Below are positions 5,314 through 57,548 of a DNA stretch of 59,782 nt, piece after piece. Below the pieces are notes generated by a model. The model saw only the letters and a list, made by a program, of their open reading frames with translations. It searched no databases and had not been told where the DNA came from. Positions within the stretch are counted from its first letter, which is position 1. Each line of letters starts with the position of its first letter. Source of the stretch: Marine group II euryarchaeote REDSEA-S42_B7 (GTDB taxonomy: Archaea > Thermoplasmatota > Poseidoniia > Poseidoniales > Thalassarchaeaceae); the NCBI GenBank assembly GCA_001629255.1, contig LURZ01000032.1, positions 1-59,782 of the forward strand, given 5' to 3'. The translations under genes and the position numbers were made by a program.

Positions 5314-8300
5314 ATGCAAACGAAAATAAAGTCCTCTAAGAGCGATGTAGAATCTGAAAGTGGTTTGGTCGTCGAGCGGCGGTTCACATCTGCAGGGCAG
5401 GATCCGTTCGAGTCGTTCGAATGGATTGAGATAGACGTGGAGATTAGGAACCCAGACGGGTCTATGGCCGACTCGTTAGAAGGCGTGAAATTGCCTTCAG
5501 GATTCTCTGGAGTACCGGGGACGGTCTGTGCTCAGAAGTATCTCCGCAAAGCGGGAGTTCCGAAGTATCTTCGGACCGTTCCCGAGGACGATGTTCCAAT
5601 CTGGCTACAGCGAAGTGAGCCAGATCACGAGCGGCTTCAAACTGTGGATGCGGCTGAAAGAATGGGTGGTGAGATTGACGGAAGACAGCTCTTCCGTCGG
5701 CTCGCAGGGACCTGGACCTACTGGGGCTGGAAGTACGGATACTTCGCAAGCGAGGCTGATGCCCGCGCGTACTTCGATGAGATGTGCTACCTGATTGCAA
5801 GTCAGAGATCTGCACCTAACAGTCCCCAGTGGTTCAACACAGGGTTGCACTGGGCATATGGAATCGAAGGCCCGGCTCAAGGTCATAGCTACGTAGACCC
5901 AGATACAGGTGAGCTAGGAAAATCTACCAATGCATATGAGCACCCGCAGCCCCATGCCTGTTTCATTCAGTCAGTATCTGATTCACTGGTTGGGGGTACA
6001 GACTCAATCATGGGCCTCTGGAACAGAGAGGCGCTTCTATTCAAGTATGGATCTGGTACTGGTTCCAACTTCTCTAACATAAGAGGGAAGGGAGAGCCAC
6101 TTTCAGGAGGAGGGACTTCCAGTGGGCTTCTGTCTTTCCTGAAGATTGGTGATAGAGCAGCTGGAGCAATAAAATCCGGAGGAACTACCAGGAGAGCGGC
6201 AAAAATGGTCACTCTCGACATGGACCACCCAGATATTGAAGAATACATTGACTGGAAGCCCTCGGAAGAAGAGAAAGTCTCGGCATTAGTAATCGGAAGT
6301 ACAATCCTACAGAAACACGCCAACTCGATAATGGAGTCTATTTGGTCGTTTGATAGTGATGAGGGGAGGTTCGATCAGAAAACGAACCTCGAACTCAGAA
6401 AAGCTATGGTCAAAGCCATCCATGACAGTGTTCCTCAGGCTCACATCAAAAGGATTGTCGATCTAGCCGAACAAGGTTGGAAGGGTCTGGAGTTTGAGGT
6501 CCTAGATACTGATTGGCAAGGCGAGGCCTACACGACGGTATCCGGTCAAAACAGCAACAATTCGGTCAGAGTCCCTAACTCGTTCATGGATGCTGTGCAA
6601 TCTGGGGATGAGTGGAACCTCTACTTCAGGACGGAAAGAGACGCTGCTGCGGAAGAAGGAAGGGATGCTGTCCCATGTAGAACTGTGGATGCCAAAGAGC
6701 TCTGGGACAAAGTTGCCTACACCGCTTGGGCTTGTGCGGACCCTGGAGTACAGTTCGACACCACAATAAACGAATGGCACACTTGCCCTCAAGCAGGGAG
6801 AATCAATGGATCAAACCCGTGCTCTGAGTACATGTTCCTAGATGACACTGCTTGTAATCTAGCAAGTATTAACCTCCTACATTATTACGATCTAGACAGT
6901 CATACCTTCCAGATTGAAGACTTCAAGCACAGTGTCAGAGTATGGACTGCTACCTTGGAAATCAGTGTCCTAATGGCTCAGTTCCCTTCTGAGTCGATAG
7001 CAAAGGGCTCCTATGATTACCGAACTCTTGGACTTGGTTACTGCAATATCGGATCTCTTCTAACTCACATGGGAATCCCGTATGATGACGAGAGGGCCTT
7101 CTCAATATGTGGGGCTATAAGTGCCATAATGTGCGGGGAATCATATGCCACCAGTGCAGAAATGGCCTCATACCTCGGCCCCTTTCCGGATTACGAACGT
7201 AATTCTGAAGATATGCTACGCGTAATGAGGAACCATCGAAGAGCTGCATACAACGCTCCTGCTGAAGAATATGAAGGGATAACAGTATTACCAATGGGAA
7301 TAGACTCCAAGAAGTGTCCCAAGGATCTGCTAGAAGCCGCTAGAAGCTGTTGGGATCGGGCAGTAATGGAGGGTGAGGAACATGGTTTCAGGAATGCGCA
7401 GACGACGGTAATTGCTCCAACAGGAACAATCGGTCTCGTAATGGGCGCGGATACCACAGGAATCGAGCCCCAGTTCTCTATGGTACAGTATAAGCAACTT
7501 GCAGGAGGTGGCTCTCTGAGAATTATCAACCAAGGACTGCCAAGCGCCCTGTCTAGACTTGGTTACTCAAAGTCAGAAGCGAAAGGGATAGAGGAGTATG
7601 TCGTGGGAACCGGCAGACTGAGTCCATCAATACCCCATGAGATCCTAAGCAACGCTGGAATGACCCCCGAAAAATTGTCTGAAATTGAATCTGAGCTACC
7701 AAAAGTATTCCATGTTAGGAATGCGTTCTCACCGGACATTCTTGGAAAAGAGTTCTGTATTGAAAATCTCGGATTGACAGAGGACGATTTCTACTTGGAC
7801 GAGGACGGCAAGGAAAAGTGCAGCAACCCATGGTTCGACACTCTCTCCCATATTGGCATGACAAACGAAGAAATTGAGTTTGCTAACACAGAGATTATTG
7901 GTCGGAACACCATCGAAGGAGCTCCTGGTCTGAAAGATGAGCATCTACCTATCTTTGACTGTGCTCAGCCATCGGGAGCTGGGGTCCGTTCCATTGCTCC
8001 TTCCGGTCACGTAAACATGATGGCTGCCGCGCAACCTTTCATCTCGGGAGCAATTTCAAAGACGATCAATATGCCATCCGACTGCTCAATAGAGGATGTT
8101 AGAGAAGCATACAACCTTAGCCACGCCACAATGAACAAAGCCTGCGCCGTTTACAGGGACGGGAGCAAGCTTTCACAGCCCTTGATGAGTCAGCTAGTGG
8201 ACTCCATGGAACTAGAAGAGGAGGATGAGGGAGAGGGTGTTGTCGAGAAGATGGTGGAGGAAGCCGCGAGCGCCTTACCACTTCCTGAGCCGGTGGCGAT

Positions 8301-8970
8301 GCCTGTTGCAAAGGCGCTTGTTGAGAAATACATCGCTTCAAAGAGGCCGCTCCCTCACAGAAAGAGGGGAGCGAACTTCAAGGCCAGAGTGGGCGGTCAC
8401 AGCGTACGTCTCATCACAGGAGAATACGAAGATGGCAAGCTCGGCGAGATCTTCCTGCTTACCTCCAAGGAAGGCGCCGCTTGGAGAGCCCTTCTATCCC
8501 AGTTCGCAATCGCGGTGTCTATCGGTTTACAGCATGGAGTACCCATTGATGCATTCGTGAAATCATTCACATTCACCAAGTTCGAGCCAAGCGGAATGAT
8601 AGAGGGAGGCAGTGGACGTGTGAAGATGTCATCCAGCATCATCGACTGGGTCTTCCGCGAGCTGGCAATCGAGTATGCCGGTAGGGACGACCTAGCTCAT
8701 GTCCCTCTGAATGAGGAAGACCTGAACCCATTCTCCATCAGCAGACCAGAGGTGACTGAACAGGGACTGTCTCGGAGCCAGGGTGAGAAGCGAGAGGTTC
8801 AGATGACCCTAGAAGCAGCAATGGGAGATGTGGATGCGAGGACCAGGCAGGCTGCCAGGGAGAGAGGTTTCACCGGCGACATCTGTGAAGACTGCGGGGG
8901 AAGCCAGATGGTCAGAAACGGCACCTGTCTGAAATGCAATGAGTGTGGTTCCACAACCGGTTGCTCATGA
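5314..8970 (+). CDS. nrdJ: class II (adenosylcobalamin-dependent) ribonucleotide reductase
   Basis: PNSPQWFNTG, HACFIQSV, SNPCSEY (thiyl Cys), APTGTIG, SGAISKTIN, TSCPD-like C-terminal domain and terminal CxxC..CxxC..GCS; SD GGGAGG at 5300-5305. Confidence 0.97.
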   Translation: MQTKIKSSKSDVESESGLVVERRFTSAGQDPFESFEWIEIDVEIRNPDGSMADSLEGVKLPSGFSGVPGTVCAQKYLRKAGVPKYLRTVPEDDVPIWLQRSEPDHERLQTVDAAERMGGEIDGRQLFRRLAGTWTYWGWKYGYFASEADARAYFDEMCYLIASQRSAPNSPQWFNTGLHWAYGIEGPAQGHSYVDPDTGELGKSTNAYEHPQPHACFIQSVSDSLVGGTDSIMGLWNREALLFKYGSGTGSNFSNIRGKGEPLSGGGTSSGLLSFLKIGDRAAGAIKSGGTTRRAAKMVTLDMDHPDIEEYIDWKPSEEEKVSALVIGSTILQKHANSIMESIWSFDSDEGRFDQKTNLELRKAMVKAIHDSVPQAHIKRIVDLAEQGWKGLEFEVLDTDWQGEAYTTVSGQNSNNSVRVPNSFMDAVQSGDEWNLYFRTERDAAAEEGRDAVPCRTVDAKELWDKVAYTAWACADPGVQFDTTINEWHTCPQAGRINGSNPCSEYMFLDDTACNLASINLLHYYDLDSHTFQIEDFKHSVRVWTATLEISVLMAQFPSESIAKGSYDYRTLGLGYCNIGSLLTHMGIPYDDERAFSICGAISAIMCGESYATSAEMASYLGPFPDYERNSEDMLRVMRNHRRAAYNAPAEEYEGITVLPMGIDSKKCPKDLLEAARSCWDRAVMEGEEHGFRNAQTTVIAPTGTIGLVMGADTTGIEPQFSMVQYKQLAGGGSLRIINQGLPSALSRLGYSKSEAKGIEEYVVGTGRLSPSIPHEILSNAGMTPEKLSEIESELPKVFHVRNAFSPDILGKEFCIENLGLTEDDFYLDEDGKEKCSNPWFDTLSHIGMTNEEIEFANTEIIGRNTIEGAPGLKDEHLPIFDCAQPSGAGVRSIAPSGHVNMMAAAQPFISGAISKTINMPSDCSIEDVREAYNLSHATMNKACAVYRDGSKLSQPLMSQLVDSMELEEEDEGEGVVEKMVEEAASALPLPEPVAMPVAKALVEKYIASKRPLPHRKRGANFKARVGGHSVRLITGEYEDGKLGEIFLLTSKEGAAWRALLSQFAIAVSIGLQHGVPIDAFVKSFTFTKFEPSGMIEGGSGRVKMSSSIIDWVFRELAIEYAGRDDLAHVPLNEEDLNPFSISRPEVTEQGLSRSQGEKREVQMTLEAAMGDVDARTRQAARERGFTGDICEDCGGSQMVRNGTCLKCNECGSTTGCS

Positions 8971-12037: not shown

Positions 12038-14125
12038 ATGGACCCAGCAGAAAGACTCGCTAGCAAACAAAAACAGATCTCGATAAGTGAGTTCTTCGAG
12101 AAAAACAAACACTTCCTTGGATTCGATACTCTTCAAAGATCAATAATCACCGCTGTGAAGGAGGCTGTGGACAATTCGCTAGATGCTTGCGAGGAGTCGA
12201 GGATACTTCCAGAGATCAGAGTAGAAATTCAGAGATTGAAGGGGGATAGGCTTAGGCTGATTACCCAAGATAACGGACCAGGGATTCCACGAGAAGACAT
12301 CGAGAACGTTTTCGGGAAATTCCTTCTCGGTTCAAGATTCCATGCAATTAGGCAGACAAGGGGTCAGCAAGGAATAGGGATCACGGGAGTTGTAATGTAC
12401 GGTCAGTTGACGGCTGGATCAAAGACGAAGGTTATTTCCAAAATTTCCAGAGATTCCTCTGCAGTTTTCGTGGAGCTTGGAATAGACACTCGCAGGAATA
12501 AAGCAACCAAATCCGGAGAAAGTAGAGATATATGGTTAGATGAAAAGACCAGTGAACCGGTTCCTCATGGATTAAAGATAGAGACAGAGATGAGGGCAAA
12601 GTACCAGAGAGGTAGACAGTCCGTCCATCAGTACCTAAGGATGACCTCTATCGTCAACCCTCATGCAAGTATCTCACTGATTGTTCGAGATAGGGATGGG
12701 AGCACAATTGAGGAGGACGAATGGCAGAGAACCACTGATAGGCTTCCAAGGGTGGTTAGCGAGATCAAGCCCCATCCCCATGGAATTCAACTAGGTTCTC
12801 TACAAAGGATGCTGAGAGAAGCCGAGGAGAGGAAAATGACATCCTTTCTACGGCACAACTTCTCGGGAGTCAGCATGAGGGCGGCACGGGAAATCTTAGC
12901 TGAAGCTGGCTTAGATGAGGGGAGGAGCCCCAAGAGGATATCCGGAGATGATGCACAAGGAATGATCAACGCATTCAGGAGGGTGAAACTCCTCTCGCCG
13001 CCCACCGATTGTCTTTCTCCTATAGAGGACCTCCTAATCAAAAAGGGTCTCTCGAAGGCAATCGACTCCAGATTCGCATCGACAATTACCAGAAACCCGA
13101 AGGTAACTCAAGGAAACCCGTTTCAGATTGAGGTTGGTTTGGTCTTTGGTGGAGATCTTAGTGCTGATGGACCCATCGAGGTCCTAAGATTTGCAAATAG
13201 GGTCCCCCTGATGTATCAACAAGGAGGTTGCCTCCTAACGAAGGCTCTTGAGGCGGTTGACTGGAAGAGATATGGTTTAGACCATCCCGGAGGAAAGGGT
13301 ATTCCAAAGGGCCCTGCAGCAGTGCTAATCCATCTAGCGTCTACTAATGTCCAGTTCACTAGTGAAGCTAAGGAGGCAGTTTCTGACAACGAAGAGGTGT
13401 TCGAAGAGATTAGGCTAGCCATGCTCGAGGTTGGAAGGGGCCTGAAGGGCCATCTGAAGAAGAGTTCTCAGAGGAAGAAAGCAAGAGAGAAATTTGAGCT
13501 CATTAACGTAATTCTCCCAGAAATCTCGAAGAAATCCTCAGAAATCCTATCTAGGGATGAGCCCGACCTAGCACCTATAATTACCAGAATAATGGATGCA
13601 GTTTTCTGCGAAGAGGAGATGGGTTGGGATAACGAAAAGAGCCTAGCCACGTGCTCCATAACCATATACAACTATACTGCTAGAGCAAGAGCGTATACCA
13701 TTCTAGCAAAATGGCCGGAAGGAGATGGAACTGCAATTTCCGATAACCCCCTAGGTGGGGCCAAGCAGGCAAAGGGACTATGGGCATGGAGGCTGGATAC
13801 ACTGAATCCGGGAACTGCCATGACAATACACTTCGGAGTCTCTGGTCTGAGAAAGGGAGAATGGAGCGATGCAGAGATATTCTACAGAGGTAATGGAGAA
13901 GTCATAGGTGCGTCTAAGATCGATGAGAAGCTGTTGGAGGAATTGAGGAAATCAGAAGCCCTGGAAGCGGCCGAGGCGGAGTTGGAACTACCCAAAGAGA
14001 CCATCCCTCAACTGAAAGAGAGAGCAGAGGATAGTGAAGCCTCTCAGGCTCGGCCACTAGTTGAGGGACAGACAAGCCTGTTTAGTGATTTCACAACTAA
14101 AGATGGAATGGAGGTGGACGAGTGA
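12038..14125 (+). CDS. top6B: DNA topoisomerase VI subunit B
   Basis: ISISEFFEKN, KEAVDNSLDA, DNGPGI, RGQQGIG GHKL motifs, RFANRVPL; SD GGTGGTGG before ATG 12038. Confidence 0.97.
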   Translation: MDPAERLASKQKQISISEFFEKNKHFLGFDTLQRSIITAVKEAVDNSLDACEESRILPEIRVEIQRLKGDRLRLITQDNGPGIPREDIENVFGKFLLGSRFHAIRQTRGQQGIGITGVVMYGQLTAGSKTKVISKISRDSSAVFVELGIDTRRNKATKSGESRDIWLDEKTSEPVPHGLKIETEMRAKYQRGRQSVHQYLRMTSIVNPHASISLIVRDRDGSTIEEDEWQRTTDRLPRVVSEIKPHPHGIQLGSLQRMLREAEERKMTSFLRHNFSGVSMRAAREILAEAGLDEGRSPKRISGDDAQGMINAFRRVKLLSPPTDCLSPIEDLLIKKGLSKAIDSRFASTITRNPKVTQGNPFQIEVGLVFGGDLSADGPIEVLRFANRVPLMYQQGGCLLTKALEAVDWKRYGLDHPGGKGIPKGPAAVLIHLASTNVQFTSEAKEAVSDNEEVFEEIRLAMLEVGRGLKGHLKKSSQRKKAREKFELINVILPEISKKSSEILSRDEPDLAPIITRIMDAVFCEEEMGWDNEKSLATCSITIYNYTARARAYTILAKWPEGDGTAISDNPLGGAKQAKGLWAWRLDTLNPGTAMTIHFGVSGLRKGEWSDAEIFYRGNGEVIGASKIDEKLLEELRKSEALEAAEAELELPKETIPQLKERAEDSEASQARPLVEGQTSLFSDFTTKDGMEVDE

Positions 14126-15228
14126 CAATGGACAGACAAAAAACGAAGGAAGAGGTGATTGATGCTTTGCATGGGGTTGCTTCGGAAATGCATGATAAGA
14201 TGATGAAAGGCAACCCCCCTACTATGACCCTGCCAGTGAGATCGAAATCAAACATAGGATTCGACAAGAAACTTGGAGTTTACAAGTACGGAAAGAAGAA
14301 GACCGTTAGAGATGCAACATCTCTTGGTTCTGCCAGACAACTTCTGAGGGCACTACACATTTCAGAGTTCGTTGAAGGAATGATCTCTGATGGAAAAACC
14401 TCCACTCTAAGGGAAATGTACTACATTTCTGAAGGATGGGGGCATGGAAAATTCTCTAGTCAGAACGAAAGCAATGGGGTATCCGAGGACTTGGAGATAG
14501 TAACGAAGTGTCTGAGAGAGGACTTCGGTCTGAGGCCTGAGGAGGACGGTGCGAGAATCATCGGCAACGTCACCTTTGAGGAGAGGAATCGTAGAGGAGA
14601 CTGGATGAGGATTAACTGTAGAGACGACGTAGGAGATTCTGGATACGGGGTTCCGTATAATGTAGAATCAGAGAAGCTTAGGATGGTGGAAGAGGACGTC
14701 GACTTCGTGATGGCAATAGAGACTGGGGGAATGTTCGACAGGCTAGTAGAGAATGGTTTCGATGAGGAGGCGAGGTGCGCTCTAGTCCATCTAAAGGGTC
14801 AACCGGCAAGGTCCACTAGGAGGATTATGAGAAGAATGAGTGACGAATGGAACAAGCCTGTATTGGTATTCGCTGACTGTGACCCATGGTCGTTCAGGAT
14901 TTATGCTAGCATAGCCTATGGAGCAATCAAAACTGCTCATATCTCAGAATACTTGGCTACTAAGGAGGCAACATATCTGGGGATAACAGCCGATGATATA
15001 CTAGCCTACGACCTTCCAAGTGATGATTTGACAAAACAGGACTTGAATGCACTGGAGGCAGAATTGAGTGATCCAAGATTCGCTACTGGTTGGTGGCAAG
15101 AGCAGATCCAACTAATGCAAGAAATAGGCAAAAAAGCGGAGCAGCAGTCTCTGGCAAAGTACGGTCTAGACTTCGTCACTGATACTTACCTGCCAGAGAA
15201 GCTCGCCACAATGGGCATAACTTACTGA
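14122..15228 (+). CDS. top6A: DNA topoisomerase VI subunit A
   Basis: TLREMYY (catalytic Tyr), [20 protein letters not shown] Toprim motif, KAEQQSL; overlaps the top6B stop. Confidence 0.97.
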
Positions 15229-16820: not shown

Positions 16821-19800
16821 TCAGAACACTAGATCATCATCATCTGAACCTGGCAATAGACTGCTCAGTTCTGAGAATCTAGCGAGTGCCTCAACCCTCC
16901 TTCCCCAGATTACGAAGCCTGCGACTCCAAACAGGGAGAAAGTTGCTCCTATGATGATAACCGGAACAGAGTATCTAACTACAATCTCTCTACCTACATC
17001 GATTGCCCCTAGTGGAGATTTCATGTTCCCTATCTTCTCGATGTTGTTACTCTCGTCGGTTTCCACGATATTGTTGTCAGGATCTACTACGACTACGATA
17101 TCGTGGTTGCCAGCTTCGACCATGTATAGAAGGGTAATCGGGTCTGACAGATCTGACTCGGACTGCCCTATTGGCATGATGGCATTTACAATCTGCCTGT
17201 AGACTATGTTCTCCTCCTTGCATCCGTTCCTCTTAATGTCAGATTCGGACTGATCCTTGCAAAGGATGATGTTGACGTCAGCAGCGTGTGCGTTTCCTCT
17301 GTTTGTGATGAATACATTGACTGAGAGCATCTCTCCAATCGCGGCTTCTCTGTCTGGAGCCACCACGCTCTCTAGAACTAGATCAGGAGCTCTGAGGCGC
17401 ATCTCGAGGACCTGCTCATTCGTATCGCAATCGGGAGCGGGGTTGTCGGGGATACCGTCAGAGTTGGTATCCAATGTACACGAGTCGGTCCAGACTTCAG
17501 TCTCATCGAAATCACCGCCCTCGTCAGAAGAGCCGTGCATAGATAGGACCTTGATTCCGAGATTTCTGTCAACCAGCGATGCATCGGGAGCCACGGTGAC
17601 AATGACAACTAGTTGCAGAGTAGTATATGGCTCCATCACGGGAAGCGTGATCGTGTTTCCTGCGGTTACATAACAATAGTCGGGCCCTTCTCCCTGGGAG
17701 GCTTGCTGGTTGATTTGGTTCTCCTCCTCGACATTTAGTTCCACGCATGGCTTCTCAAGCGGGAACTCGCTACCGAACCCTTCCAACAGAGCGTAGTCTA
17801 TTTCCCATGTGCTGAGAGAACCCAGGCCCGGACTCACGGACCAGATTTTGTTCACATCATCGTATGTGTGGTTGTGGATCGTGGGCTGATCTGCCACGTT
17901 TCCATAATTCGAGACGTTGAGAGTGTATCTTACGATTCTGCTTGGAGCTGTGGTTTTGATCTTGCTCTCCACTAACGGATCCAGAGAAATTTGCATATCG
18001 TGGAACTCGATTATGGTAGCTCTGAGTACCACCTGATCCTGAACCCTAGTTCCCTCATAGGGCTCCTCACTCAGGATGTTGAATGTGATCGTGTAATCAC
18101 CAGCTAGGGTCTGAACTGGGACGTTGATGTAAATTGGGACGGTCTGTGACTCATCTCTATTCAATTCCTCGAACAATATCCTCGGGATGTACATGTCCCA
18201 AACGTGAGCTGCTCCTTTATCGTCAATTATGGACTCGATTGTGACGTCGAACCTGTCTTGGCCATTTCCAAGGTTGGAGATTGTGGTGTTCATTTGGTAG
18301 GATTGACCGGGGTATAGGTCTAGTATAGTCTCAGGTACTGAGGACTCTAGTTCGTACCTCTGAACAACATTTGTCAGAATTAGCACAGAGTCACGAACTT
18401 TCGGGGAGCCATCCAGATGCGCACGGACTGTGACAGATTCCCCAATTCCGGCGGTTGCATTGAACGGGGAGCACATCTCGGCCGTGACTGTGTATGTGTT
18501 GCCCACATTTGCCCAGTAGATGTCCTGATCAGCAGATGAGGATCCGCCCGTCCATTCTGAGAAGTCCAAGTCTACTGTCCAATGATCGAACCTCCATGAG
18601 TTGATATCTGCCTCTTCTGGCCTCTCCATTGGTGCGCCGGGAGTCGTGAAAACTAGACTCCCTGGAGTAAAGTACTTGTTCACCTGAACAGGGAATCTAG
18701 CACACTCCCCAGGAAGAACGTACAGTTTTGTATCCCCGATATCGAATACAATGTTCCCAGTTGTCCTTATCGAGACGTTTATCCATAACTCTAGTACATC
18801 GAATGTCCCTCTATCTACAGACAAGACAGGTTCGCCGGTTGACCATCCCTTCAGGTATATGGCAAAGGTGCCGGGGTCCTGGGATTCAGGGACACTGACC
18901 TTTAGATTCCTAGTTACGGATTGACCTGGATCCAAGGATAGCGACAGTGGGAAGTCTATCCCCCATCCAAACGGAAGTGACCACTCGTTTTGTCCGTCCA
19001 GTGTAGCCGGGTCATAGAATGCGAACGTATCGAAAACGTTTCCAGTGTTCTTGATAGAAATCGAGAAGACTGCCGATTTGCCCTGCTCAACATCTACTTG
19101 GAAATGGCTTGTATCGAGTTCTATTCCATGGACAACATCCATCAGAGTAAGCAAGGTTAGCTTGTTGCGGATAGCGGGGTCCTTTTGCGAGGTTGCGATG
19201 ATGCTTATTTGCGCAAGTTCGTCGCTCTTAGCCTGATAGATTGTGGGTGTTCTGACTCTTAGGTAAAGCGGATCTATGGCTCCGCCCTCTAGGAAAATCT
19301 TAGTTGAGTCGAAAATCGGGGTATTGTTGGTCGTATAGAATAATGTTGCAGTCCAGTTGTTTGGAACGCCCTCCATTGTTATTGTGAAGGTATCCTGGAC
19401 CAACTCCGCGGGCCCTGGGGTGGGATTAGCTATTGTGATGTTGAACGTTGTAAGTTCTCCTGGCTGAATAGTATGGTAGAATGTCTCAGCGTCTGAAGGG
19501 CAATCGTATGGGTATCCCTCAATATTCGGATTTGCCTGTATCTTTTCGTCACAGGCCAGTGAGAGGTCCACTAGGCCAGTCAGGACGTGCACGTAGCAAA
19601 GAGTCCACTTGTTGGCATTCTGACCATCCCAGTCGCACCTCTTGTCTGACCATCCGATATGCGCTCCACTACCGAGATCGTTGGCGAATGCAGGAGGCAT
19701 CCCACGATCGAGATTGAAGTCAGGGAACAGATGGTGTCCGTCGGCGGTATTGCACTCTGGCTGGCAGGGTGCAGGGCCTAACTTGTCAGAAGACCAATTG

Positions 19801-22073
19801 GTAACTTCTTGTATCTCCCATGGGTCGAGTATCGAAGAGGCTGCAGAATTCAATGGGAATCCCTGCGGGTACTCCTCGTTGGTATTGTTTAGTCTGGCAT
19901 ACATAATTGTCTCCTGCCATTCAGTATTGCTGTAGTCAATCCAAGCCAGATGGACATTGTCGAAGGAGTCGGTCAAGATGGAGGGTGCCACAGAGCTTGG
20001 TGCAAACGGGAATTCTTCGCTAGCACCCTCGCATTGCTCAGAGTTCGAAATCGCGCTTGAAGCGATTTGCTTAATTCCGTATGCTGGTAGGCCCTCGGGG
20101 ACTCCGTCCCATTCTGCAGCACCTCTCAGTCTGAGTCTGGTGTAGTATACTTCGTAGGCGCCTTCGATATCGATTCCACCTGTTGGTCCTGAGCAGCCAG
20201 GATATAGTCGTCCGTCCTGCCATGCGAGATGCGTGTTTCCTGATGTGTCTATTGCTATTGAGGGGTGTAGGCTGTAAGCAGGGTTGTTTGTAATCTGAGT
20301 ATCATTCACAACGACCAGATGTCCGTAGCCCTGTTCATCCTCTGATGGACCCAAATCCTCGGTATAGTAACCTCCTTGCTGATTAGATTCTGTACCTGGA
20401 TCGCCTCTAGTCCAACCGGGCCATGGATTCTCTAGAAGCGAGTGAGGGTCTAGAACAGTCATGTAAATCTCTCGAGAGTTATTCGTAGCTAAGTAGACCA
20501 TTGCCTCTACCATTATTTCGAGCTCCGACGAGGAGCCTGCGGTTGTTGGGAACTGATACATTTGGCCCTCTGCGGAAGTTGTTCGAGTCGTAGCCCCGCT
20601 GCAGGATCTAGTGTTCAGTCCTGACCCCACAGGGCACTGGGCAAGATCGAGCATGTAACTTCCTACAGAAGTGTCGGAGCCTGCCCAGAGAGGATATGGC
20701 TTTGTCTGAGCCAAAACACAAGCGTCGTGGGCCTGATTGATGCTCTGCGTATCGTCATTGTCCATTGGCGTCCCTCCGTATGGTCCTTCGTCAGAAATTG
20801 GAATCACTACCCTCGTGGCATTGTCATTCCATCGATGGTCCAGAGTTGTTGGGGGGTTTGCAGAAAGTCCCTGCCTTCCTTGGACATCTCTGTAGGACAA
20901 GCAGGCCCAAGTTGCTGCAGGACCCCAGAACTCGCTGTAGTAACCGCCATCGGCGGGTAGGTTGGTCGCTTGGTTGTTGTAAACCACCTCAGTGAGTTCT
21001 CTGATTCCTCCGGATGAGTCTCCTGGACCTAGCGGAGTGTTTCTCGGGCCCTGACTACCGGATCCTCCGGTCTGGTAAGCGTCAGCACAGTTTCCGCTGG
21101 TCGCTGCTGCTGGCCAATTGCCACTTAGTGCATAGAGGGTTTCGTATACACTCATATTGGCACTGACAAGCATGGGCTTTAGTCCCACGAAATACCCGCC
21201 GCTCGCAAAGTTCCCTCCATAGAATACAGCACACATGTCAGCCCATTCTGCATTCATGGAGCCAGATGTATCGATAGGGACAACCATCTCTACTTGGCCG
21301 CCCCTTGTATCATCCCAGACTATCTGAACGAAGTCGTTTACGTCAACGGCGATATCTGGGTGGCCCTTCTGTCCAAGGATAGGGGTCAAGAGTGTGCTGT
21401 CAATCTCCACTATAACCATTCTAGCGACGTGATCAATTGACATCATCTTGTAGTAAATCTGAGATTGTTGATAGTATAGTTCCAATGGTTCGAACGAGTC
21501 TTCCCATACAATATGTGGATTATTTTCAGAATCTACGTCTATTGCAGGCCAGTCTCTGTTCTGAGGATTGTTTGCAACCTCGTAATCGTCTGGAACCACG
21601 GAAAGTACCGAGTCCAGAGACGCATCGCCGCTCTGGTCGTCCAAGGAAGGATCCAATAGAGTGTACATAATCTTGTATTGACTTGCCTTATCCGTCCAAA
21701 CGACGTGGACCATGTCATCATTGTCTACTCTAATGTCTGGATGCCAGGCTCGATGAGCTCCTGGATCAGAGATTTGAGTCTCTGCAATCAGTGTCTCCCC
21801 CCTAGGATCTAGCATCTTGTAGTAAAGGTGATTCGTGTTGCGACTCCAGACTACGTGGACGTTCCCAGATGAGTCTGCATCCATGGACATCATTCTATCA
21901 TTGTGGACACCGCTCTGGACGACTTCTATGGGATCGGTCAGAACAATTTCGCTCGCACTAGCCTGTGGCGAGAATGTGGCGAGGAGGCTCACGAGCATTA
22001 GCACGACAATCGCTAAACCGCTCTTCTTGGTAGATATACGGTCGTTAGTAAGATGTCGAAAGGTATGCATCAT
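16821..22073 (-). CDS. large cell-surface protein: propeller-type repeats + vWA + Ig-like repeats + CARDB-like domain + C-terminal TM
   Basis: Signal-like KKSGLAIVVLMLVSLLA..ASA; seven DxxxxxH[VIL]xW-type repeats; DTSGS MIDAS; [IV]xNxGNxxD repeats; PDLV..VVVDPDNNIVETDESNN; C-terminal TM. Start moved to ATG 22073 to remove overlap. Confidence 0.85.
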   Translation of the reverse strand: MMHTFRHLTNDRISTKKSGLAIVVLMLVSLLATFSPQASASEIVLTDPIEVVQSGVHNDRMMSMDADSSGNVHVVWSRNTNHLYYKMLDPRGETLIAETQISDPGAHRAWHPDIRVDNDDMVHVVWTDKASQYKIMYTLLDPSLDDQSGDASLDSVLSVVPDDYEVANNPQNRDWPAIDVDSENNPHIVWEDSFEPLELYYQQSQIYYKMMSIDHVARMVIVEIDSTLLTPILGQKGHPDIAVDVNDFVQIVWDDTRGGQVEMVVPIDTSGSMNAEWADMCAVFYGGNFASGGYFVGLKPMLVSANMSVYETLYALSGNWPAAATSGNCADAYQTGGSGSQGPRNTPLGPGDSSGGIRELTEVVYNNQATNLPADGGYYSEFWGPAATWACLSYRDVQGRQGLSANPPTTLDHRWNDNATRVVIPISDEGPYGGTPMDNDDTQSINQAHDACVLAQTKPYPLWAGSDTSVGSYMLDLAQCPVGSGLNTRSCSGATTRTTSAEGQMYQFPTTAGSSSELEIMVEAMVYLATNNSREIYMTVLDPHSLLENPWPGWTRGDPGTESNQQGGYYTEDLGPSEDEQGYGHLVVVNDTQITNNPAYSLHPSIAIDTSGNTHLAWQDGRLYPGCSGPTGGIDIEGAYEVYYTRLRLRGAAEWDGVPEGLPAYGIKQIASSAISNSEQCEGASEEFPFAPSSVAPSILTDSFDNVHLAWIDYSNTEWQETIMYARLNNTNEEYPQGFPLNSAASSILDPWEIQEVTNWSSDKLGPAPCQPECNTADGHHLFPDFNLDRGMPPAFANDLGSGAHIGWSDKRCDWDGQNANKWTLCYVHVLTGLVDLSLACDEKIQANPNIEGYPYDCPSDAETFYHTIQPGELTTFNITIANPTPGPAELVQDTFTITMEGVPNNWTATLFYTTNNTPIFDSTKIFLEGGAIDPLYLRVRTPTIYQAKSDELAQISIIATSQKDPAIRNKLTLLTLMDVVHGIELDTSHFQVDVEQGKSAVFSISIKNTGNVFDTFAFYDPATLDGQNEWSLPFGWGIDFPLSLSLDPGQSVTRNLKVSVPESQDPGTFAIYLKGWSTGEPVLSVDRGTFDVLELWINVSIRTTGNIVFDIGDTKLYVLPGECARFPVQVNKYFTPGSLVFTTPGAPMERPEEADINSWRFDHWTVDLDFSEWTGGSSSADQDIYWANVGNTYTVTAEMCSPFNATAGIGESVTVRAHLDGSPKVRDSVLILTNVVQRYELESSVPETILDLYPGQSYQMNTTISNLGNGQDRFDVTIESIIDDKGAAHVWDMYIPRILFEELNRDESQTVPIYINVPVQTLAGDYTITFNILSEEPYEGTRVQDQVVLRATIIEFHDMQISLDPLVESKIKTTAPSRIVRYTLNVSNYGNVADQPTIHNHTYDDVNKIWSVSPGLGSLSTWEIDYALLEGFGSEFPLEKPCVELNVEEENQINQQASQGEGPDYCYVTAGNTITLPVMEPYTTLQLVVIVTVAPDASLVDRNLGIKVLSMHGSSDEGGDFDETEVWTDSCTLDTNSDGIPDNPAPDCDTNEQVLEMRLRAPDLVLESVVAPDREAAIGEMLSVNVFITNRGNAHAADVNIILCKDQSESDIKRNGCKEENIVYRQIVNAIMPIGQSESDLSDPITLLYMVEAGNHDIVVVVDPDNNIVETDESNNIEKIGNMKSPLGAIDVGREIVVRYSVPVIIIGATFSLFGVAGFVIWGRRVEALARFSELSSLLPGSDDDDLVF

Positions 22074-22137
22074 CCATATTCGACTTTCTCGAATACTTAA
22101 CCTATACCCATTATGGTCACTTGATCGAGATGACGAG

Positions 22138-22761
22138 CTAGGCCCATTCCAGTGGGTCAAAATCCTTCCCAAAACCACCTGTCTCGTCAGTATCAATCTC
22201 TGAATGTCTAGTAGGAGATTCAGGGGATTTTCTGCCTGTCTTCCCTTCCCAATCATCCACTGGGCCTGGTTTCCCCTTCCCATTTCCAAAGCCGTATTTT
22301 ATTTGGTGAATCAGTGATAGCTTGGTTAGCCAAACTCTTCTCATACTCTGCATGAATTCATTCTGAGTAAGTCCATCCAGCCAAACCGGCCTAGAGAGAT
22401 TGAAGGCCTGGAGTGGGCCTGCGACTCCCTGCTTGCTTCTCCCGACATGGAGGACCCAATCTAAGTCAGACGATGTCATTCTAATTCTAGTATCGTGTAG
22501 CCATTCCTCCCATGACTCCGAGTCTTCTCTAGCCATTTCACGCATTGACTCTTGCTGTCCCTCATCCACTCTTGTAATGGAGTATAACAATACCAAATTT
22601 CTCTTCTTTGGAATTACGATGTTGAACAGATGGCCTTGCTTAGTTGGGGGGTATCTAACATGGAGGTGTATTATAGCCTGAGGATCTTTCACCTCTCTTG
22701 CCTCCAGCCTCTCACTGTCCAACCATGACCGAATACTGTCTGCAGCATCGTTGTGATTCAC
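22138..22761 (-). CDS. DUF2299-like archaeal protein
   Basis: IRSWL..DPQA..H..V.YP N-terminus and WLDGLTQNEFM resemble DUF2299 (from memory). Confidence 0.6.
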   Translation of the reverse strand: MNHNDAADSIRSWLDSERLEAREVKDPQAIIHLHVRYPPTKQGHLFNIVIPKKRNLVLLYSITRVDEGQQESMREMAREDSESWEEWLHDTRIRMTSSDLDWVLHVGRSKQGVAGPLQAFNLSRPVWLDGLTQNEFMQSMRRVWLTKLSLIHQIKYGFGNGKGKPGPVDDWEGKTGRKSPESPTRHSEIDTDETGGFGKDFDPLEWA

Positions 22762-37662: not shown

Positions 37663-40641
37663 TCAGACCATCCCGTTTAGGTGTTGACCTGTATAGCTTC
37701 CAGGCTCCCTAGCGACCTCGTCAGGCGTTCCTGCGACTACCACCTCTCCACCCAGCTCTCCTCCCTCCGGACCTAGGTCGATTATCCAGTCCGCGCACTT
37801 GATCACATCGAGGTGGTGTTCTATCACTATCACCGTGTGACCGTTGCGTCGTAGCCGAAGTAGGACATCGATGAGCTGATGGACGTCTGATAGAGCCAGG
37901 CCCGTAGTCGGTTCGTCCAAGATGTAGAATGTGTGCTTCCTTGGTGGTCTGTGGAGTTCGGTTGCCAACTTGACTCGTTGGGCCTCTCCTCCGGAGAGTG
38001 TTGTTGCAGGCTGTCCTAGCCTGATGTATCCCAATCCAACATCCTGGACCGTCTTGACTATCCTGTGGATCCTGGGTTGGTTCTCAAAGAAGACGCATGC
38101 CTCATCAACGCTCAATTCGAGAATATCATTAATCGTCTTACCCTTCCACTTGACCTCTAGTGTCTCCCTGGTGTACCTCTTTCCCTTGCACACTTCACAA
38201 GTTACCCACACGTCTGGTAGGAAGTTCATCTCCAGTTTAGTAGAGCCCGCTCCGCTGCATGCCTCGCACCTCCCTCCTCTGACATTGAAGGAGAACTGTC
38301 CTGGTTCGTATCCCCTTTCCTTCGCCAATTTTGTCTGTGAGAATAGGTCCCTAATAGGTCCGAAGGCACCTGTGTAAGTTGCCGGATTAGATCTTGGAGT
38401 CCTTCCAATGGGTGATTGGTCGATTACTATGGTCTTGTCCACCATTTCCAGGCCTGCAATCCCATCCATGGCGCCAGGAGTTGAGTCTGTTCCGTGGAGT
38501 TCTCTAAGAAGTGCTGGTGCAAGTGTCTCAGTAACCAAAGACGACTTGCCGGATCCCGAAACCCCGGTAACGGCCACCATGCAGCCGAGGGGTATCCTGA
38601 CATCGATGTCCTGGAGGTTGTTCTGACGGGCACCTGAAATCTTGATCCATCGTTCATCGTCGGGCTCGACTCTATCGTCGGGAATCGGGATCCCCTCCCT
38701 CCCCGACAGATATGCGGCCGTAGGGCTCTCATCGCTTCGTAAGAGATCTGGGTAGGTCCCACTCACGACCAGTTGCCCGCCGTCCTTCCCAGCGCCGGGT
38801 CCGAGATCAACCAGCCAATCGGCCTGCTTCATCGTAGCCTCATCGTGCTCCACAACCAGCAGTGTATTCCCGAGATCTGTTAGCTCCCTCAACGTCTGAA
38901 GTAGTCTGTCGTTGTCCCTGGGATGAAGACCTATGCTAGGCTCATCCAAGACGTACATTACGCCGGTTAGTCGTGTGCCTATCTGTGTTGCCAATCGTAT
39001 CCTCTGACTCTCCCCGCCCGAGAGAGTGTTAGCCCTGCGATCTAGTGTCAGGTAGTCTAACCCAACCAAGGCAAGGAACCTGAGTCTGGACTCTATCTCC
39101 TTGATGATCTCTTTTCCTATGTACATGGAACGCTCGTCTAGCCTCTCCGTCGATTGGACTATGACGCTGTCTGGGGCGTCTCTGTCGAGATTGTCCCATG
39201 TATCATCTAAGCCCCCCAACCTCCAATTCTGTACCACGGCCAAGGCTTCCAGCACACTGCAACTTGAAATTCCTGGAAGATTCACACCCCCGACGGTGAC
39301 CTTGGATACGGCATCGTTCAGTTTGTCTCCACGGCAAGTTGAGCACGCCTCATCCGTCATGAACGAGGATAGCCTGGACCTAGTTCGCTCTGAGCTGGTA
39401 TCCTTGTATGTACGAGCGAGTCTGGAGAAGACCCCTTCCCATGGTCTGGACATAGTGTACGAGGACCCCTTCTCAGAGTTGAACTCGAAATTGATCACCT
39501 CGCCTCCTGAGCCATTGAGCATGATATCGCGACTGTCCTCGTCCAATTCTCCAAATGGGACGTCCGTGGGTATGCCGAAGTGGTCGCATGTCTGAGTCAT
39601 CTGGCTTCGGTACCAACCGGACATCATCGACCTCCGGAAGGGCCTGATGCATCCCTCCCCCACCGTAGCTGTCCTGTCGATTACGAGATCGGGAGAGAAT
39701 GACCGCTCGACCCCTAACCCCTGACAGGTGGGGCACGCTCCTAGGGGGTTGTTGAACGAGAAAACTCGGGGGCTCATCTCAGGAAGGAAGGAGCCGTGGG
39801 TTGGGCATGCAAACTCCTCCGAGTAAGCGATTACCTCTTCCTCCTGGGTCCTGAATCTCTGCTCTTCTGCATTGTCTTCCCCGGGTTTGGGCGCACTCAG
39901 ACTCTCCACTGCAACGGACCCTGCGCCGAGGCGCAATCCCGCCTCTATTCCCTCTGTTAGCCTCTGTCTATTGGGCTGTGTCAGCAGCAGTCTGTCCACT
40001 CTGACGTCTACATCGTGTCTCAGATTCTTTTCCAAGCGTGGGGGATCTTCGAAGCTAGCCTCTCTTCCATTTACCTTGCCTGCAAGGTATCCTTGGTCTA
40101 CCAAAGCATTGAACAAGTCGGCATGGGTGCCCTTTCGATTCCTGATTGCAGGACTCCAAATCGCTATCCCATGTCCCTCAAAGCGCCACATGACATCATC
40201 GACAATCTCCTGCACGGTCCTCCTGCTAACTTCGCGTCCACATTCGGGACAATGAGGGAGTCCGACTCTCGCCCACAGAAGTCGCATGTAATCCATCATC
40301 TCAGTTACGGTAGCAACTGTCGATCTGGGGTTGTGACTTCCTTGCTTCTGATCTATGCTGATAGCCGGTGATAGTCCTTCGATAGAGTCGCAGTCTGGTT
40401 TCTTCATTTGTCCGAGGAACTGCCTTGCATAGGAACTTAGGCTCTCGACATAGCGTCTCTGGCCCTCTGCATACAGAGTATCGAATGCTAAGCTTGATTT
40501 CCCGGAGCCTGAAACCCCAGATATCACGACGAACTTTCCCCTCGGTATGCTAACATCGATGTTCTTCAGATTATGAGTCCTGGCCCCCTTTACCTCGATC
40601 CAACCATCCTCGGAAAAGCCATTGCTCTTGTTGTCTGACAT
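37663..40641 (-). CDS. uvrA: excinuclease ABC subunit A
   Basis: Two GVSGSGKS Walker A motifs, [16 protein letters not shown] signatures, Zn fingers; SD GGTGA before ATG 40641. Confidence 0.98.
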
Positions 40642-40786
40642 CGCATCACCTTGTCCGGAGTAACCACTCACAGCGCGCTCCTTTGAAACCATGCCTGAGA
40701 AAACCACACAGAATGGAATCGGGGTTGCTTTGGCCTTGTAGTTACAACGGCTGTGAATTGGAGTCGAGCGCTCTTAGGTTTAGTGT

Positions 40787-55100: not shown

Positions 55101-55754
55101 CTACTCACTAGGGGTGCTCTGTATTATTGTTTCAATAATATTTTCAGCGCGTTCCTTCCCCAACTCCACCTGATCTCGAATAAATGAATCGGGGTTCTCC
55201 CCTCTCCAAATCATTGTCTGTATCCACTTTCCGGTTTTTTCAAGCTCTTGACTGCTCCAAACCTCTGTAGTTCCATCTGGTCTAGAGCCCTGACGAAGCG
55301 TATCAGGAGAGTCCTCAGATCTACAGACGCCCCCGTACCATTGGGCCTGACCACTGACATCGCTACAGAAGTCTAGAAGGTAGTCGAAGGTTAGAGAGCC
55401 CTGCCCAATGGACCCGGCCCCAACGAAGTCTATACTATCATCTGAGATGGTGATTATTCTAGTCCTCAGATGGAAGATGCATCCCCTTTTTGCCAGCTGG
55501 ATCCCCATTGCCTTCTGAAGCCAGGACCCCCGGACAGCCTTAGAAGTCGGTTCGGGAGTCTGAGAGCCCAATTCGGATATCCAGTGAGTAGGGCATGGGG
55601 GCCACGAGGATAGTAGGCCTGGAGTCTCCTCGACAAGGCCTATCTCTGCCCTCTCAGTAATGATCTGGATTTCCATTTCTGAATTCAAATCCAAAGCGTG
55701 ATTGGCTCCAGATAGAGATGCGAGGTTATCCCCGAGAATAACGAGTCTGATCAT
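55101..55754 (-). CDS. truncated, degenerate FAD-Rossmann (geranylgeranyl-reductase-like) protein
   Basis: N-terminal beta-alpha-beta LVILGDNLASL..IITERAEIG; ATGA overlap with the ferredoxin stop. Confidence 0.6.
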   Translation of the reverse strand: MIRLVILGDNLASLSGANHALDLNSEMEIQIITERAEIGLVEETPGLLSSWPPCPTHWISELGSQTPEPTSKAVRGSWLQKAMGIQLAKRGCIFHLRTRIITISDDSIDFVGAGSIGQGSLTFDYLLDFCSDVSGQAQWYGGVCRSEDSPDTLRQGSRPDGTTEVWSSQELEKTGKWIQTMIWRGENPDSFIRDQVELGKERAENIIETIIQSTPSE

Positions 55755-55978
55755 GCAAGCACCCCATAGACAGGGGTCTTTTCGTCTCTGACTAGGGATA
55801 ATGCGTGAACGGGGCATGCCGGGATGCAGTGCTCGCAGTGAGTGCAGCTGGGCTCATCGACGATGGCAAGTAATCCCTCGAGCGAGAGTGCATTTACGGG
55901 GCATAGTGCCACACATGCGGCGCAGCCAAAACACCGATCCTCATCCACTTCGAACAGAAGTCCCACCTGTCTGCCCAT
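55751..55978 (-). CDS. 2x[4Fe-4S] ferredoxin
   Basis: CFGCAACVALCP and CTHCEHCIPACP motifs. Confidence 0.93.
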   Translation of the reverse strand: MGRQVGLLFEVDEDRCFGCAACVALCPVNALSLEGLLAIVDEPSCTHCEHCIPACPVHALSLVRDEKTPVYGVLA

Positions 55979-56012
55979 GCCCCTGCCACGTTGAATGTGA
56001 CCTCAATGTTAT

Positions 56013-56200
56013 CCCCAACCCCCTGTGTTCCACTAGAACGATCATGATCGTGTTGAACAAAGGACCTTCTATGGTAGAATCCTGATGACTTCAGTAGACA
56101 ATAGAGGCTCTTCCGCTTTCAAACTATAATCATTTACAATAACCAGAGATATTTTTGAAATTCACCTCTAACTATTGGAGTGGAAGTAGGGGGGTTGGGG
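56013..56200. other. candidate replication origin: inverted ORB-like repeats flanking an AT-rich segment
   Basis: Minus 56013-56039 reads GTTCTAGTGGAACACAGGGGGTTGGGG; plus 56174-56200 reads ATTGGAGTGGAAGTAGGGGGGTTGGGG (20/27 identical); 56117-56163 has 37/47 A+T. Confidence 0.65.
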
Positions 56201-56240
56201 GAGGGTCTCCTTCATATCCCAAGAACCTGTAGTGTAAGAC

Positions 56241-57548
56241 ATGGTCCTATACACTGCAGGCTCCTCCTCCTCATATCCAGATAAACCTCCTGAAAAGGGA
56301 ATACGATTCCACTTCCTAGGAGGTGCGGGCGAGGTCGGAAATGTTGGCTGTATAATCGAGGACAGCGACCGCAATCGAATCCTCATAGACTACGGTCTGG
56401 CACCGACGAAACCCCCCCGGTATCCATCTGAGTCACCACCCGTGAAGCACGCTATCATGACACACGCACACATTGATCATATCGGCATGGCTCCCTGGCT
56501 AGCAACCTATGGCACTCTCCTCCATGGTACAGACCTAACCGCAGCCGTTTCGGAAATAATGTGGTCAGACACATACAAGGTCTCTGACATAGAGGGATAC
56601 CCGCTAGCTTGGGACAAGAGGGACATGGAAGTGGCCCTAGACTCATGGATGCCCCACCAGTTCGGTAAGTGGTTCACAGTGGGTGACTGGAAATGTAGGC
56701 TCCACCCCGCTGGACATATCCCTGGTGCAGCAATGATAGAAATCAAAACGCCACAAGCCACCATTCTCTGGACAGGCGATCTGGATACGAGAAACAGTCC
56801 GAATGCACCACAAGCAGTGCCAGTTGACTGCGATATATTGTGCATGGAAGGTACATACGGCGGTCGTACGCACCCCAACAGGGAGGAGGAAGAGGGGCGC
56901 TTCGTCTCTCGAGTACTGGAAGTCGTCTCCAGAGGGGGTACCGCACTGGTCCCGGCCTTCGCCTCGGGTAGAGGACAGGATATCCTCCGAATCCTCCACA
57001 AAGAAGCCCCTGGCTTGGATGTCCACTACGACGGGATGGGCACTAGAGTTACTAGGGAGTGGCTGGGTTGTCCCGAGTTCATCAGAGATGCAAGAGCGAT
57101 GGAGTCAGCCTACCGATGGGCTCGGAGGGTTTCAGGAAAGTCGGATAGGAAGAAGGCATTGCATGCGGACGTCATAGTAACTACCAGCGGAATGCTTGAT
57201 GGAGGGCCGGCTCTTTGGTATCTCAACAGGCTGAGGCACGACGGCTCGAACGCTATCCTACTTACGGGGTATCAAGCCGAGGGTTCAGGGGGGCGCCGTC
57301 TTCTAGAGACTGGCAGACTACCAATATTCGGGAACCAGACACGGATCCCATTAGAGATTGACAAGTTCGAGCTTTCCAACCACGCAGACCATCCGTCACT
57401 ATGCGAATTCGCCCGAAAATGCGAACCCTCGCATGTCGTACTATTCCACGCCGATGGGGGTGCGGCGAAGGCGATCGAAGCAGACCTCGCAGTGGAAATA
57501 AAGGTGCATTTACCCTCAAACAACGAAACACTGGAGATCTCCGATTAG
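56241..57548 (+). CDS. beta-CASP metallo-beta-lactamase ribonuclease
   Basis: FLGGAGEVG, THAHIDH, AGHIPG, TGD, EGTYG, TGYQ, LSNHAD. Confidence 0.9.
   Translation: MVLYTAGSSSSYPDKPPEKGIRFHFLGGAGEVGNVGCIIEDSDRNRILIDYGLAPTKPPRYPSESPPVKHAIMTHAHIDHIGMAPWLATYGTLLHGTDLTAAVSEIMWSDTYKVSDIEGYPLAWDKRDMEVALDSWMPHQFGKWFTVGDWKCRLHPAGHIPGAAMIEIKTPQATILWTGDLDTRNSPNAPQAVPVDCDILCMEGTYGGRTHPNREEEEGRFVSRVLEVVSRGGTALVPAFASGRGQDILRILHKEAPGLDVHYDGMGTRVTREWLGCPEFIRDARAMESAYRWARRVSGKSDRKKALHADVIVTTSGMLDGGPALWYLNRLRHDGSNAILLTGYQAEGSGGRRLLETGRLPIFGNQTRIPLEIDKFELSNHADHPSLCEFARKCEPSHVVLFHADGGAAKAIEADLAVEIKVHLPSNNETLEISD

Follow-up and report, generated by a model that had tools for sequence, protein, structure and literature searches.

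A candidate chromosomal replication origin uncoupled from its initiator gene in Marine Group II archaea

Results

Two inverted ORB-like boxes lie between divergent ferredoxin and beta-CASP genes

The window, by which we mean the whole 59,782-bp stretch of DNA analysed here, is one contig (C26) of a Marine Group II (Poseidoniales, Thalassarchaeaceae-like) assembly comprising 43 contigs and 1.19 Mb (70.8% complete). A 262-bp intergenic gap separates a ferredoxin gene (55751-55978, minus strand; 75 aa with two 4Fe-4S motifs; Fer4 at 1.2e-13) from a gene for a beta-CASP/metallo-beta-lactamase nuclease (56241-57548, plus strand; 435 aa), the protein of which has Beta-Casp (3.7e-12), Lactamase_B and RMMBL domains and no KH domains. 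Both genes are transcribed away from a pair of boxes resembling archaeal origin recognition boxes (ORBs), which stand inverted to each other in this divergent gap and flank an AT-rich element. ORB-L (56013-56039, minus strand) consists of the mini-ORB TTCTAGTGGAAC, a 3-nt linker, the G-string GGGGG and a TT-GGGG extension, and ORB-R (56174-56200, plus strand) of the mini-ORB TTGGAGTGGAAG, a linker, the G-string GGGGGG and again a TT-GGGG extension, the linker measuring 3-4 nt across the two boxes. Both G-strings face outward, away from the spacer. A sequence-only reading of the window had pointed to these two inverted 27-mers, and they are present just as described; the outward G-strings that it also noted fit the ORB(-)/DUE/ORB(+) arrangement (DUE, duplex unwinding element), which the accessible text of the 2026 Ori-Finder-Arch preprint calls the minimal functional pattern of an archaeal origin.

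Genes for a class II ribonucleotide reductase with a TSCPD domain (5314-8970), topoisomerase VI subunit B (12038-15228) and UvrA (37663-40707) are located <50 kb from the pair, and the gene adjoining that for topoisomerase VI subunit B is the probable subunit A gene. The window also encodes an 1820-aa protein (16821-22283, minus strand) whose only domain matches (CARDB and NEW3-type) lie toward the C-terminus and which is probably a large surface protein.

A repeat search recovered the boxes as 22-nt inverted arms that are 82% complementary, with 144 nt between them. Their shared pattern, AGTGGAA-N4-GGGGGTTGGGG, has two matches in the 59,782-bp window, both at the pair, against an expectation of 0.04, and none of 100 dinucleotide shuffles gave two. 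The looser pattern AGTGGAA-N3-5-GGGGG matched six times in the whole 1.19-Mb assembly, including twice at the pair. We further scored the assembly with a position weight matrix (PWM) built from 238 unique boxes of relatives (consensus TTTCCAGTGGAAATAAAGGGGT(TGGGG)). ORB-R was the best site in the whole assembly (27.6 bits) and ORB-L the fourth best (23.5 bits), ranks that are partly circular because the training set included ORB-pair loci, also the copies in the two long assemblies G026 and G041 considered below. In the gap, the scan found two boxes above 8 bits and no others. The third-best site of the assembly (C3:7183-7217, minus strand; 25.1 bits) is ORB-like and falls inside a 199-aa zinc-ribbon-like ORF.

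The archaeal ORB consensus is given as CTTCCAGTGGAAACGAAAGGGGT, and that of Methanomassiliicoccales as GTTCCAGTGGAAATGG-AGGGGTA, in Table 2 of PMC4153887. An archaeal origin of the Orc1/Cdc6 type is expected to have at least two elements with the mini-ORB dyad and G-string consensus, and the window pair supplies two. Its boxes are relatively degenerate, with two and three mismatches to the 11-nt mini-ORB TCCAGTGGAAA, and those of relatives are nearer to the consensus. The literature-style ORB pattern had no match in the genome of the window at one mismatch or fewer, and at up to two mismatches TCCAGTGGAAA-N4-GGGG found the same sites as the PWM.

The spacer is AT-rich and has a conserved central block

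The 134-bp spacer between the boxes (56040-56173, assigned to neither strand) is the candidate duplex unwinding element. Its G+C content is 35.8%, compared with 50.9% for the window, which places it among the lowest 0.15% of the contig's 134-bp windows. Within the spacer lies the 47-bp stretch 56117-56163 (21.3% G+C); no 47-mer of the window is richer in AT, and only 0.005% of the contig's 47-bp windows are as AT-rich; the figure of ~79% AT given earlier for a 47-bp stretch between the boxes is accurate (78.7%). The inner inverted pairs proposed along with it, TAGAGG/CCTCTA (56102/56165) and TTTCAAA/TTTGAAA (56117/56154), exist as well, at a level expected by chance (three inverted 6-mers in the spacer versus 2.98 in 2000 shuffles, and one inverted 7-mer versus 0.80) and without conservation in relatives, so this element of the proposal did not hold up.

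An alignment of 14 sequences from close relatives revealed three islands of conservation, namely both G-strings, each with the adjoining half of its mini-ORB, the TATA-like blocks between the G-strings and the start codons, and a central block in the spacer. The DNA between the islands is not conserved in sequence and is still AT-rich in the relatives. The central block (56095-56140, no strand assigned; ~45 bp) is a run of invariant and near-invariant columns, with a genus consensus of roughly ACAGCCAT-TGAAG-TCTTCAG-TTT-CAT-ACTATAAT-GTTAC, and family f3 carries another central block, in which TCGCG is invariant. The block may be a site for an accessory factor, analogous to the ucm of Sulfolobus, or a TATA-like promoter.

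One TATA-like block, CTCAATGTTA (56002-56011, minus strand; invariant or near-invariant columns), lies between ORB-L and the ferredoxin start, 24-33 nt upstream of the latter, and may be the core promoter of a leaderless ferredoxin mRNA. The other, TTCATATCC (56211-56219, plus strand; invariant columns), lies 22-30 nt upstream of the beta-CASP ATG and could likewise be the core promoter of a leaderless beta-CASP mRNA. With these blocks in place, the boxes might be read as Orc1-binding operators of the divergent ferredoxin and beta-CASP promoters, Orc1/Cdc6 acting as a transcription factor and replication starting elsewhere. In keeping with this reading, the G-strings end 10-25 nt from the TATA-like blocks, which themselves stand 22-33 nt before the start codons; an operator function would nevertheless leave the AT-rich spacer with its conserved core unaccounted for.

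A contig assembled from an RNA library (55811-56064) crosses ORB-L and ends at 56064. Contigs from an unrelated marine DNA run break off at 56065 and start again at 56109, where the spacer is not conserved, and variation of the spacer between strains may be the cause. Neither the RNA nor the DNA contigs mark a transcript start or a lack of transcription. An Rfam search of 55900-56300 (E up to 1) yielded no known RNA gene for the gap; its only match, mir-343 at 23 bits versus a gathering score of 70, we attribute to chance.

The pair is conserved across related genomes

Upstream regions of relatives were collected by using the beta-CASP gene as an anchor (orthologues 55-96% identical). A first set of 29 loci, the window included, represented three families of the order and was searched with a relaxed box pattern. 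Both boxes were found in 27 of the 29 loci, across the three families and ~160 bp apart, at about -60 (plus strand) and -200 to -225 (minus strand) relative to the beta-CASP start codon; one of the remaining two loci has a single box, and in the other the boxes have visibly diverged past the pattern. A second set, drawn from a species-level genome collection, comprised 80 additional loci, four of which were dropped for having too little upstream sequence. Both boxes were at the expected positions in 62 of the remaining 76 loci, one box in four, and none within 400 nt in ten, whereas the controls (reversed DNA, a 400-nt stretch within the gene, and shuffled sequence) gave both boxes in 0/76 each; as the genomes are kin, these locus counts are not independent and overstate the independence of the evidence. 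The boxes and their arrangement are thus kept in related genomes, as the sequence-only reading had required of an origin.

The same comparison bears on whether the pair arose as a palindrome by chance or represents the terminal inverted repeats of a small mobile element. The incomplete (82%) complementarity of the arms would suit such an explanation, but the shuffles did not reproduce the pair of patterns (0/100), the pair occupies the same position in three families and >60 loci, it occurs as one copy per genome rather than dispersed, and its boxes fit a published protein-binding consensus. Contradicted by both conservation and copy number, this explanation is extremely improbable.

A ferredoxin homologue is in the same place in 93/108 related loci, and this widely kept linkage to the pair is in line with an operator function. 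Nine of the ten loci without boxes also have no ferredoxin neighbour. Displaced pairs were sought in the two box-less loci whose genomes could be queried (G043 and G042), and in both an inverted pair was found farther upstream of the beta-CASP gene, at 6.7 kb in G043 and 7.6 kb in G042, with ordinary genes between. The pair therefore is not tied to the beta-CASP promoter, contrary to what operators of that promoter would lead one to expect.

Two further arrangements were seen in these searches. In G043, four tandem TCTAGTGGAAAC-type boxes are found on one strand with 30-54 nt spacing (C7:39771-39915), on a contig other than that of the pair, and may represent either the origin of a plasmid or virus or an ORB array. 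In Marine Group III (MGIII), all five genomes examined, each of them fragmented, have ORB hits on contigs that carry neither their single cdc6 gene nor a beta-CASP orthologue; the hits include one inverted ORB pair (G046:C70:30135-30245; 92 nt apart, start to start).

The initiator genes are distant and other ORB sites are few

Two Cdc6_C matches were found in the assembly of the window, one each on contigs C1 and C33; the window contig has none. The cdc6 gene on C1 (69821-71059; Cdc6_C 1.2e-27) encodes a protein that matches the ORB-bound structures 2v1u_A (3.8e-94) and 2qby_A (2.3e-92), and a cognate initiator of the Orc1-1 type is thereby encoded in the genome. The protein of the second paralogue (C33:23590-24801) is far more distant (best match 4.6e-34). 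The pair is ~438 kb from cdc6-1 and ~497 kb from cdc6-2 in G026, 337 kb and 436 kb in G041, and ~310 kb and ~410 kb in G045. Adjacency to an initiator gene, which is usual and not obligatory for archaeal origins, is thus lacking, as had been claimed: both genes lie on other contigs in this assembly and at distances of 310-497 kb in relatives.

A better ORB cluster beside cdc6, which would have spoken against the pair, was sought, and no ORB of at least 8 bits was detected upstream of either cdc6 gene of this assembly or of cdc6-1 in G026. The gap before the cdc6-1 gene of this assembly (C1:71060-71461; 400 bp, 32% G+C) holds short AT-rich repeats only. A weaker conserved arrangement was found 4.4-5.5 kb beyond the 3' end of cdc6-1, where a mini-ORB without a G-string precedes an ~850-aa gene with a wHTH-like N-terminus and an ORB-like box lies ~500 nt inside that gene (C1:65158-65198 and 65697-65731 in this assembly; 1823664 and 1824165 in G026; 518525 and 519055 in G041). 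Gene orientation does not diverge at this arrangement, which may be what is left of an ancestral origin linked to cdc6, or else a regulatory site.

In G026, a single contig of 2,064,136 bp, only four sites exceeded 20 bits: the two boxes of the pair (29.3 and 27.2), a box before mcm (29.0) and the box inside the gene 5.4 kb from cdc6-1 (23.3), the next best having 19.3 bits. In the first 800 kb of G041, the top sites were the pair (32.2 and 23.5) and the mcm box (25.4), followed by 18.4 bits. The pair is the only paired ORB cluster in one whole chromosome (G026), in one half chromosome (G041) and in the assembly of the window, which leaves the operator reading without another paired cluster that could act as the origin.

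The mcm box is a single full ORB 20-60 bp before the gene with its G-string toward it (C6:35922-35956 in this assembly; 305928-305962 in G026; 307174-307208 in G041). In 11/11 Poseidoniales genomes examined, an ORB hit precedes the MCM ATPase-domain match by 875-915 nt on the same strand, and mcm is 80-120 kb from the pair where both share a contig. This suggests Orc1 control of mcm transcription, or one half of a second origin. A promoter-associated single ORB in all 11 genomes counts in favour of operators at the pair as well. ORBs at promoters, that of mcm included, indicate that in this lineage they also occur in regulatory contexts.

Gene orientation and nucleotide skew switch at the pair

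We profiled gene orientation and third-position skews along all of G026 and the first 800 kb of G041. Most genes between 16.8 and 55.8 kb of the window run on the minus strand, and the three to the right of the gap are all plus-strand genes. The right-minus-left 100-kb contrast in gene orientation at the pair ranked second of 413 positions in G026, where the pair is at 203.8 kb and the cumulative gene-strand curve turns from falling to rising at ~225 kb. The corresponding curve of G041 has its minimum at 185,877, 330 bp from the pair (186,209-186,400). The orientation-averaged third-position GC-skew contrast at the pair was second of 413 positions in G026 and second of 120 in G041. An extremum of composition, which the sequence-only reading had required in the form of skew, and one of gene orientation are thus found at the pair in the two long assemblies examined. 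Operators at the two promoters would leave this genome-wide maximum of gene-orientation divergence unexplained, and taking the evidence of the preceding sections together we regard them as an unlikely explanation of the pair.

The polarity of the skew is less simple. The genome-wide AT skew of G026 is V-shaped, with a minimum at 1.217 Mb and a broad maximum at 97-330 kb, and the point opposite the pair is at 1.236 Mb, compared with the minimum at 1.217 Mb. Up to ~100 kb from the pair, the plus strand is enriched in G and T to the left and in C and A to the right; beyond this zone, the AT3 skew has the reverse sign. A domain of ~200 kb centred on the pair has GC3 and AT3 skews opposite to those of the flanking replichores, in an MGIIa and an MGIIb genome. 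Under ordinary (bacterial or Pyrococcus) polarity, the inner skew is the pattern of converging forks. Under the inverted polarity of haloarchaea it is that of an origin, and the switch at 1.22 Mb would then be origin-like too. The local polarity is not accounted for by a single-origin model with ordinary polarity.

A second explanation of the locus follows from ordinary polarity, in which the pair is a minor or dormant origin, or forks meet there from origins ~100 kb to each side, the right one near the mcm ORB. The GC3 and AT3 skews, read in this way, point toward the pair from both sides and switch back at ~100 kb and ~290-330 kb in G026 and G041, with the mcm ORB at 305.9 kb and 307.2 kb, respectively; 215 kb lies halfway between 100 and 330 kb, and its opposite point (1.247 Mb) is near the switch at 1.215-1.235 Mb. 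However, gene orientation does not diverge at ~100 kb or ~300 kb, and most genes of the 200-kb domain would be head-on to replication. The region of G026 near 100 kb has no ORB of at least 12 bits and no AT-rich gap, and nothing of at least 12 bits was found at 1.205-1.245 Mb. Polarity itself is not to be assumed, the GC skew of haloarchaea being inverted according to PMC1868953. We therefore consider this explanation quite unlikely.

In sense-strand terms, the inner skew is a stronger C3 bias in majority-oriented than in minority-oriented genes, and it may come from expression-linked codon usage rather than from fork direction. With such a cause possible, the skew is weak as independent support and indicates a switch at the pair, not the direction of forks. 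In general, the strand switch at the pair ranks at the top genome-wide, its polarity misfits a simple single-origin model, and codon usage may confound it.

Discussion

The uncultured Marine Group II archaea belong to the most abundant archaea of the plankton, and to our knowledge nothing is known experimentally about how they replicate. Our full-text literature search, which covered main texts, returned no description of a Poseidoniales replication origin. We interpret the locus described here as an Orc1-1-type chromosomal replication origin that is uncoupled from its initiator gene (probability roughly 0.75), and it would most probably be the principal origin of the chromosome. Comparative evidence speaks for the decoupled oriC proposed by the sequence-only reading, and it is from this evidence that we infer a function; that reading set the interest of the locus too high, since uncoupling from cdc6 has precedents. 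Speaking against an origin are the relative degeneracy of the window's own boxes, the presence of only two ORBs, many characterised origins having more, the probable core promoter that each G-string abuts, and the single ORB in the mcm promoter.

The closest model is oriC1 of Sulfolobus. As described in the accessible sections of PMC12141716, it has a 130-bp ORB3-DUE-ORB2 core in which the inverted ORBs each bind one Orc1-1 monomer with defined polarity, both ORBs and the central ucm are individually required, and ATP-bound Orc1-1 suffices for MCM recruitment. The locus resembles this Sulfolobus/Saccharolobus origin, as far as it is covered there, in its two inverted ORBs and its ~130-bp AT-rich middle with a short conserved motif, and an Orc1-1 orthologue is encoded in the genome of the window. 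It differs in that oriC1 is beside orc1-1 and has a third ORB, whereas the window has two boxes only, the initiator gene being on a different contig. The central block also differs in sequence from the Sulfolobus ucm as quoted in the Ori-Finder-Arch preprint.

By analogy with oriC1, one Orc1-1 monomer would bind each box with fixed polarity, and the Orc1-1 encoded on contig C1 is the presumed ligand of both. Crystal-structure papers of 2007 reportedly assign recognition of the dyad to the winged-helix domain and that of the G-string to the AAA+ domain. Two bound Orc1-1 proteins could then recruit MCM onto the AT-rich spacer, which would melt, and replication would proceed from the pair in both directions. 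The central block of the spacer may bind an accessory factor.

The likeness extends to other archaea. The predicted origins of Methanomassiliicoccales, which belong to the class Thermoplasmata, share a near-identical ORB consensus with an optional extra GGGGGT extension, a prevalence of inverted pairs, two orc1/cdc6 paralogues, and isolated single ORBs elsewhere, judging from the available parts of PMC4153887; their ORB pairs adjoin orc1/cdc6.1, whereas the cdc6 genes of Poseidoniales have no adjoining ORB. The oriC1 of haloarchaea (Haloferax and Haloarcula) likewise has inverted ORBs with a G-string extended past the core, a feature earlier called halophile-specific, and the GC skew of these organisms is inverted, with an excess of C on the leading strand, the same sign as the local skew at the Poseidoniales pair. 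The haloarchaeal origin differs in being cdc6-adjacent and in residing in genomes with multiple origins and multiple cdc6 genes (PMC1868953 and PMC4010727, in the sections accessible for both). The main oriC of Hyperthermus butylicus is similar in having the order ORB(-)/DUE/ORB(+) and no adjacent initiator gene, but it is from a different phylum and is compared here by a figure legend of the Ori-Finder-Arch preprint.

The pair varies on the known themes by its two boxes only, by the absence of an initiator gene nearby and by its lineage-specific central block. In the rules quoted for the current origin-prediction pipeline (Ori-Finder-Arch), 'Type I' origins are initiator-adjacent, which the pair is not, and a 'Type III structure-match' takes three or more ORBs, of which the pair has two. 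Being neither, it would go unreported under these quoted rules and marks a blind spot of origin prediction.

The position of an origin is the reference point for peak-to-trough (marker-frequency) estimates of growth from metagenomes, and it helps to orient and check closed assemblies. The locus also makes it possible to test binding directly, on a short DNA fragment with a named protein. More tentatively, and with the doubt that so broad a reading calls for, the whole class Poseidoniia (MGII and MGIII) might share a replicator split from the initiator gene, a two-box minimal origin, a lineage-specific ucm-like central motif, and the same Orc1-1 at the mcm-promoter box. If that were true, one protein would both mark the origin and set the supply of the helicase.
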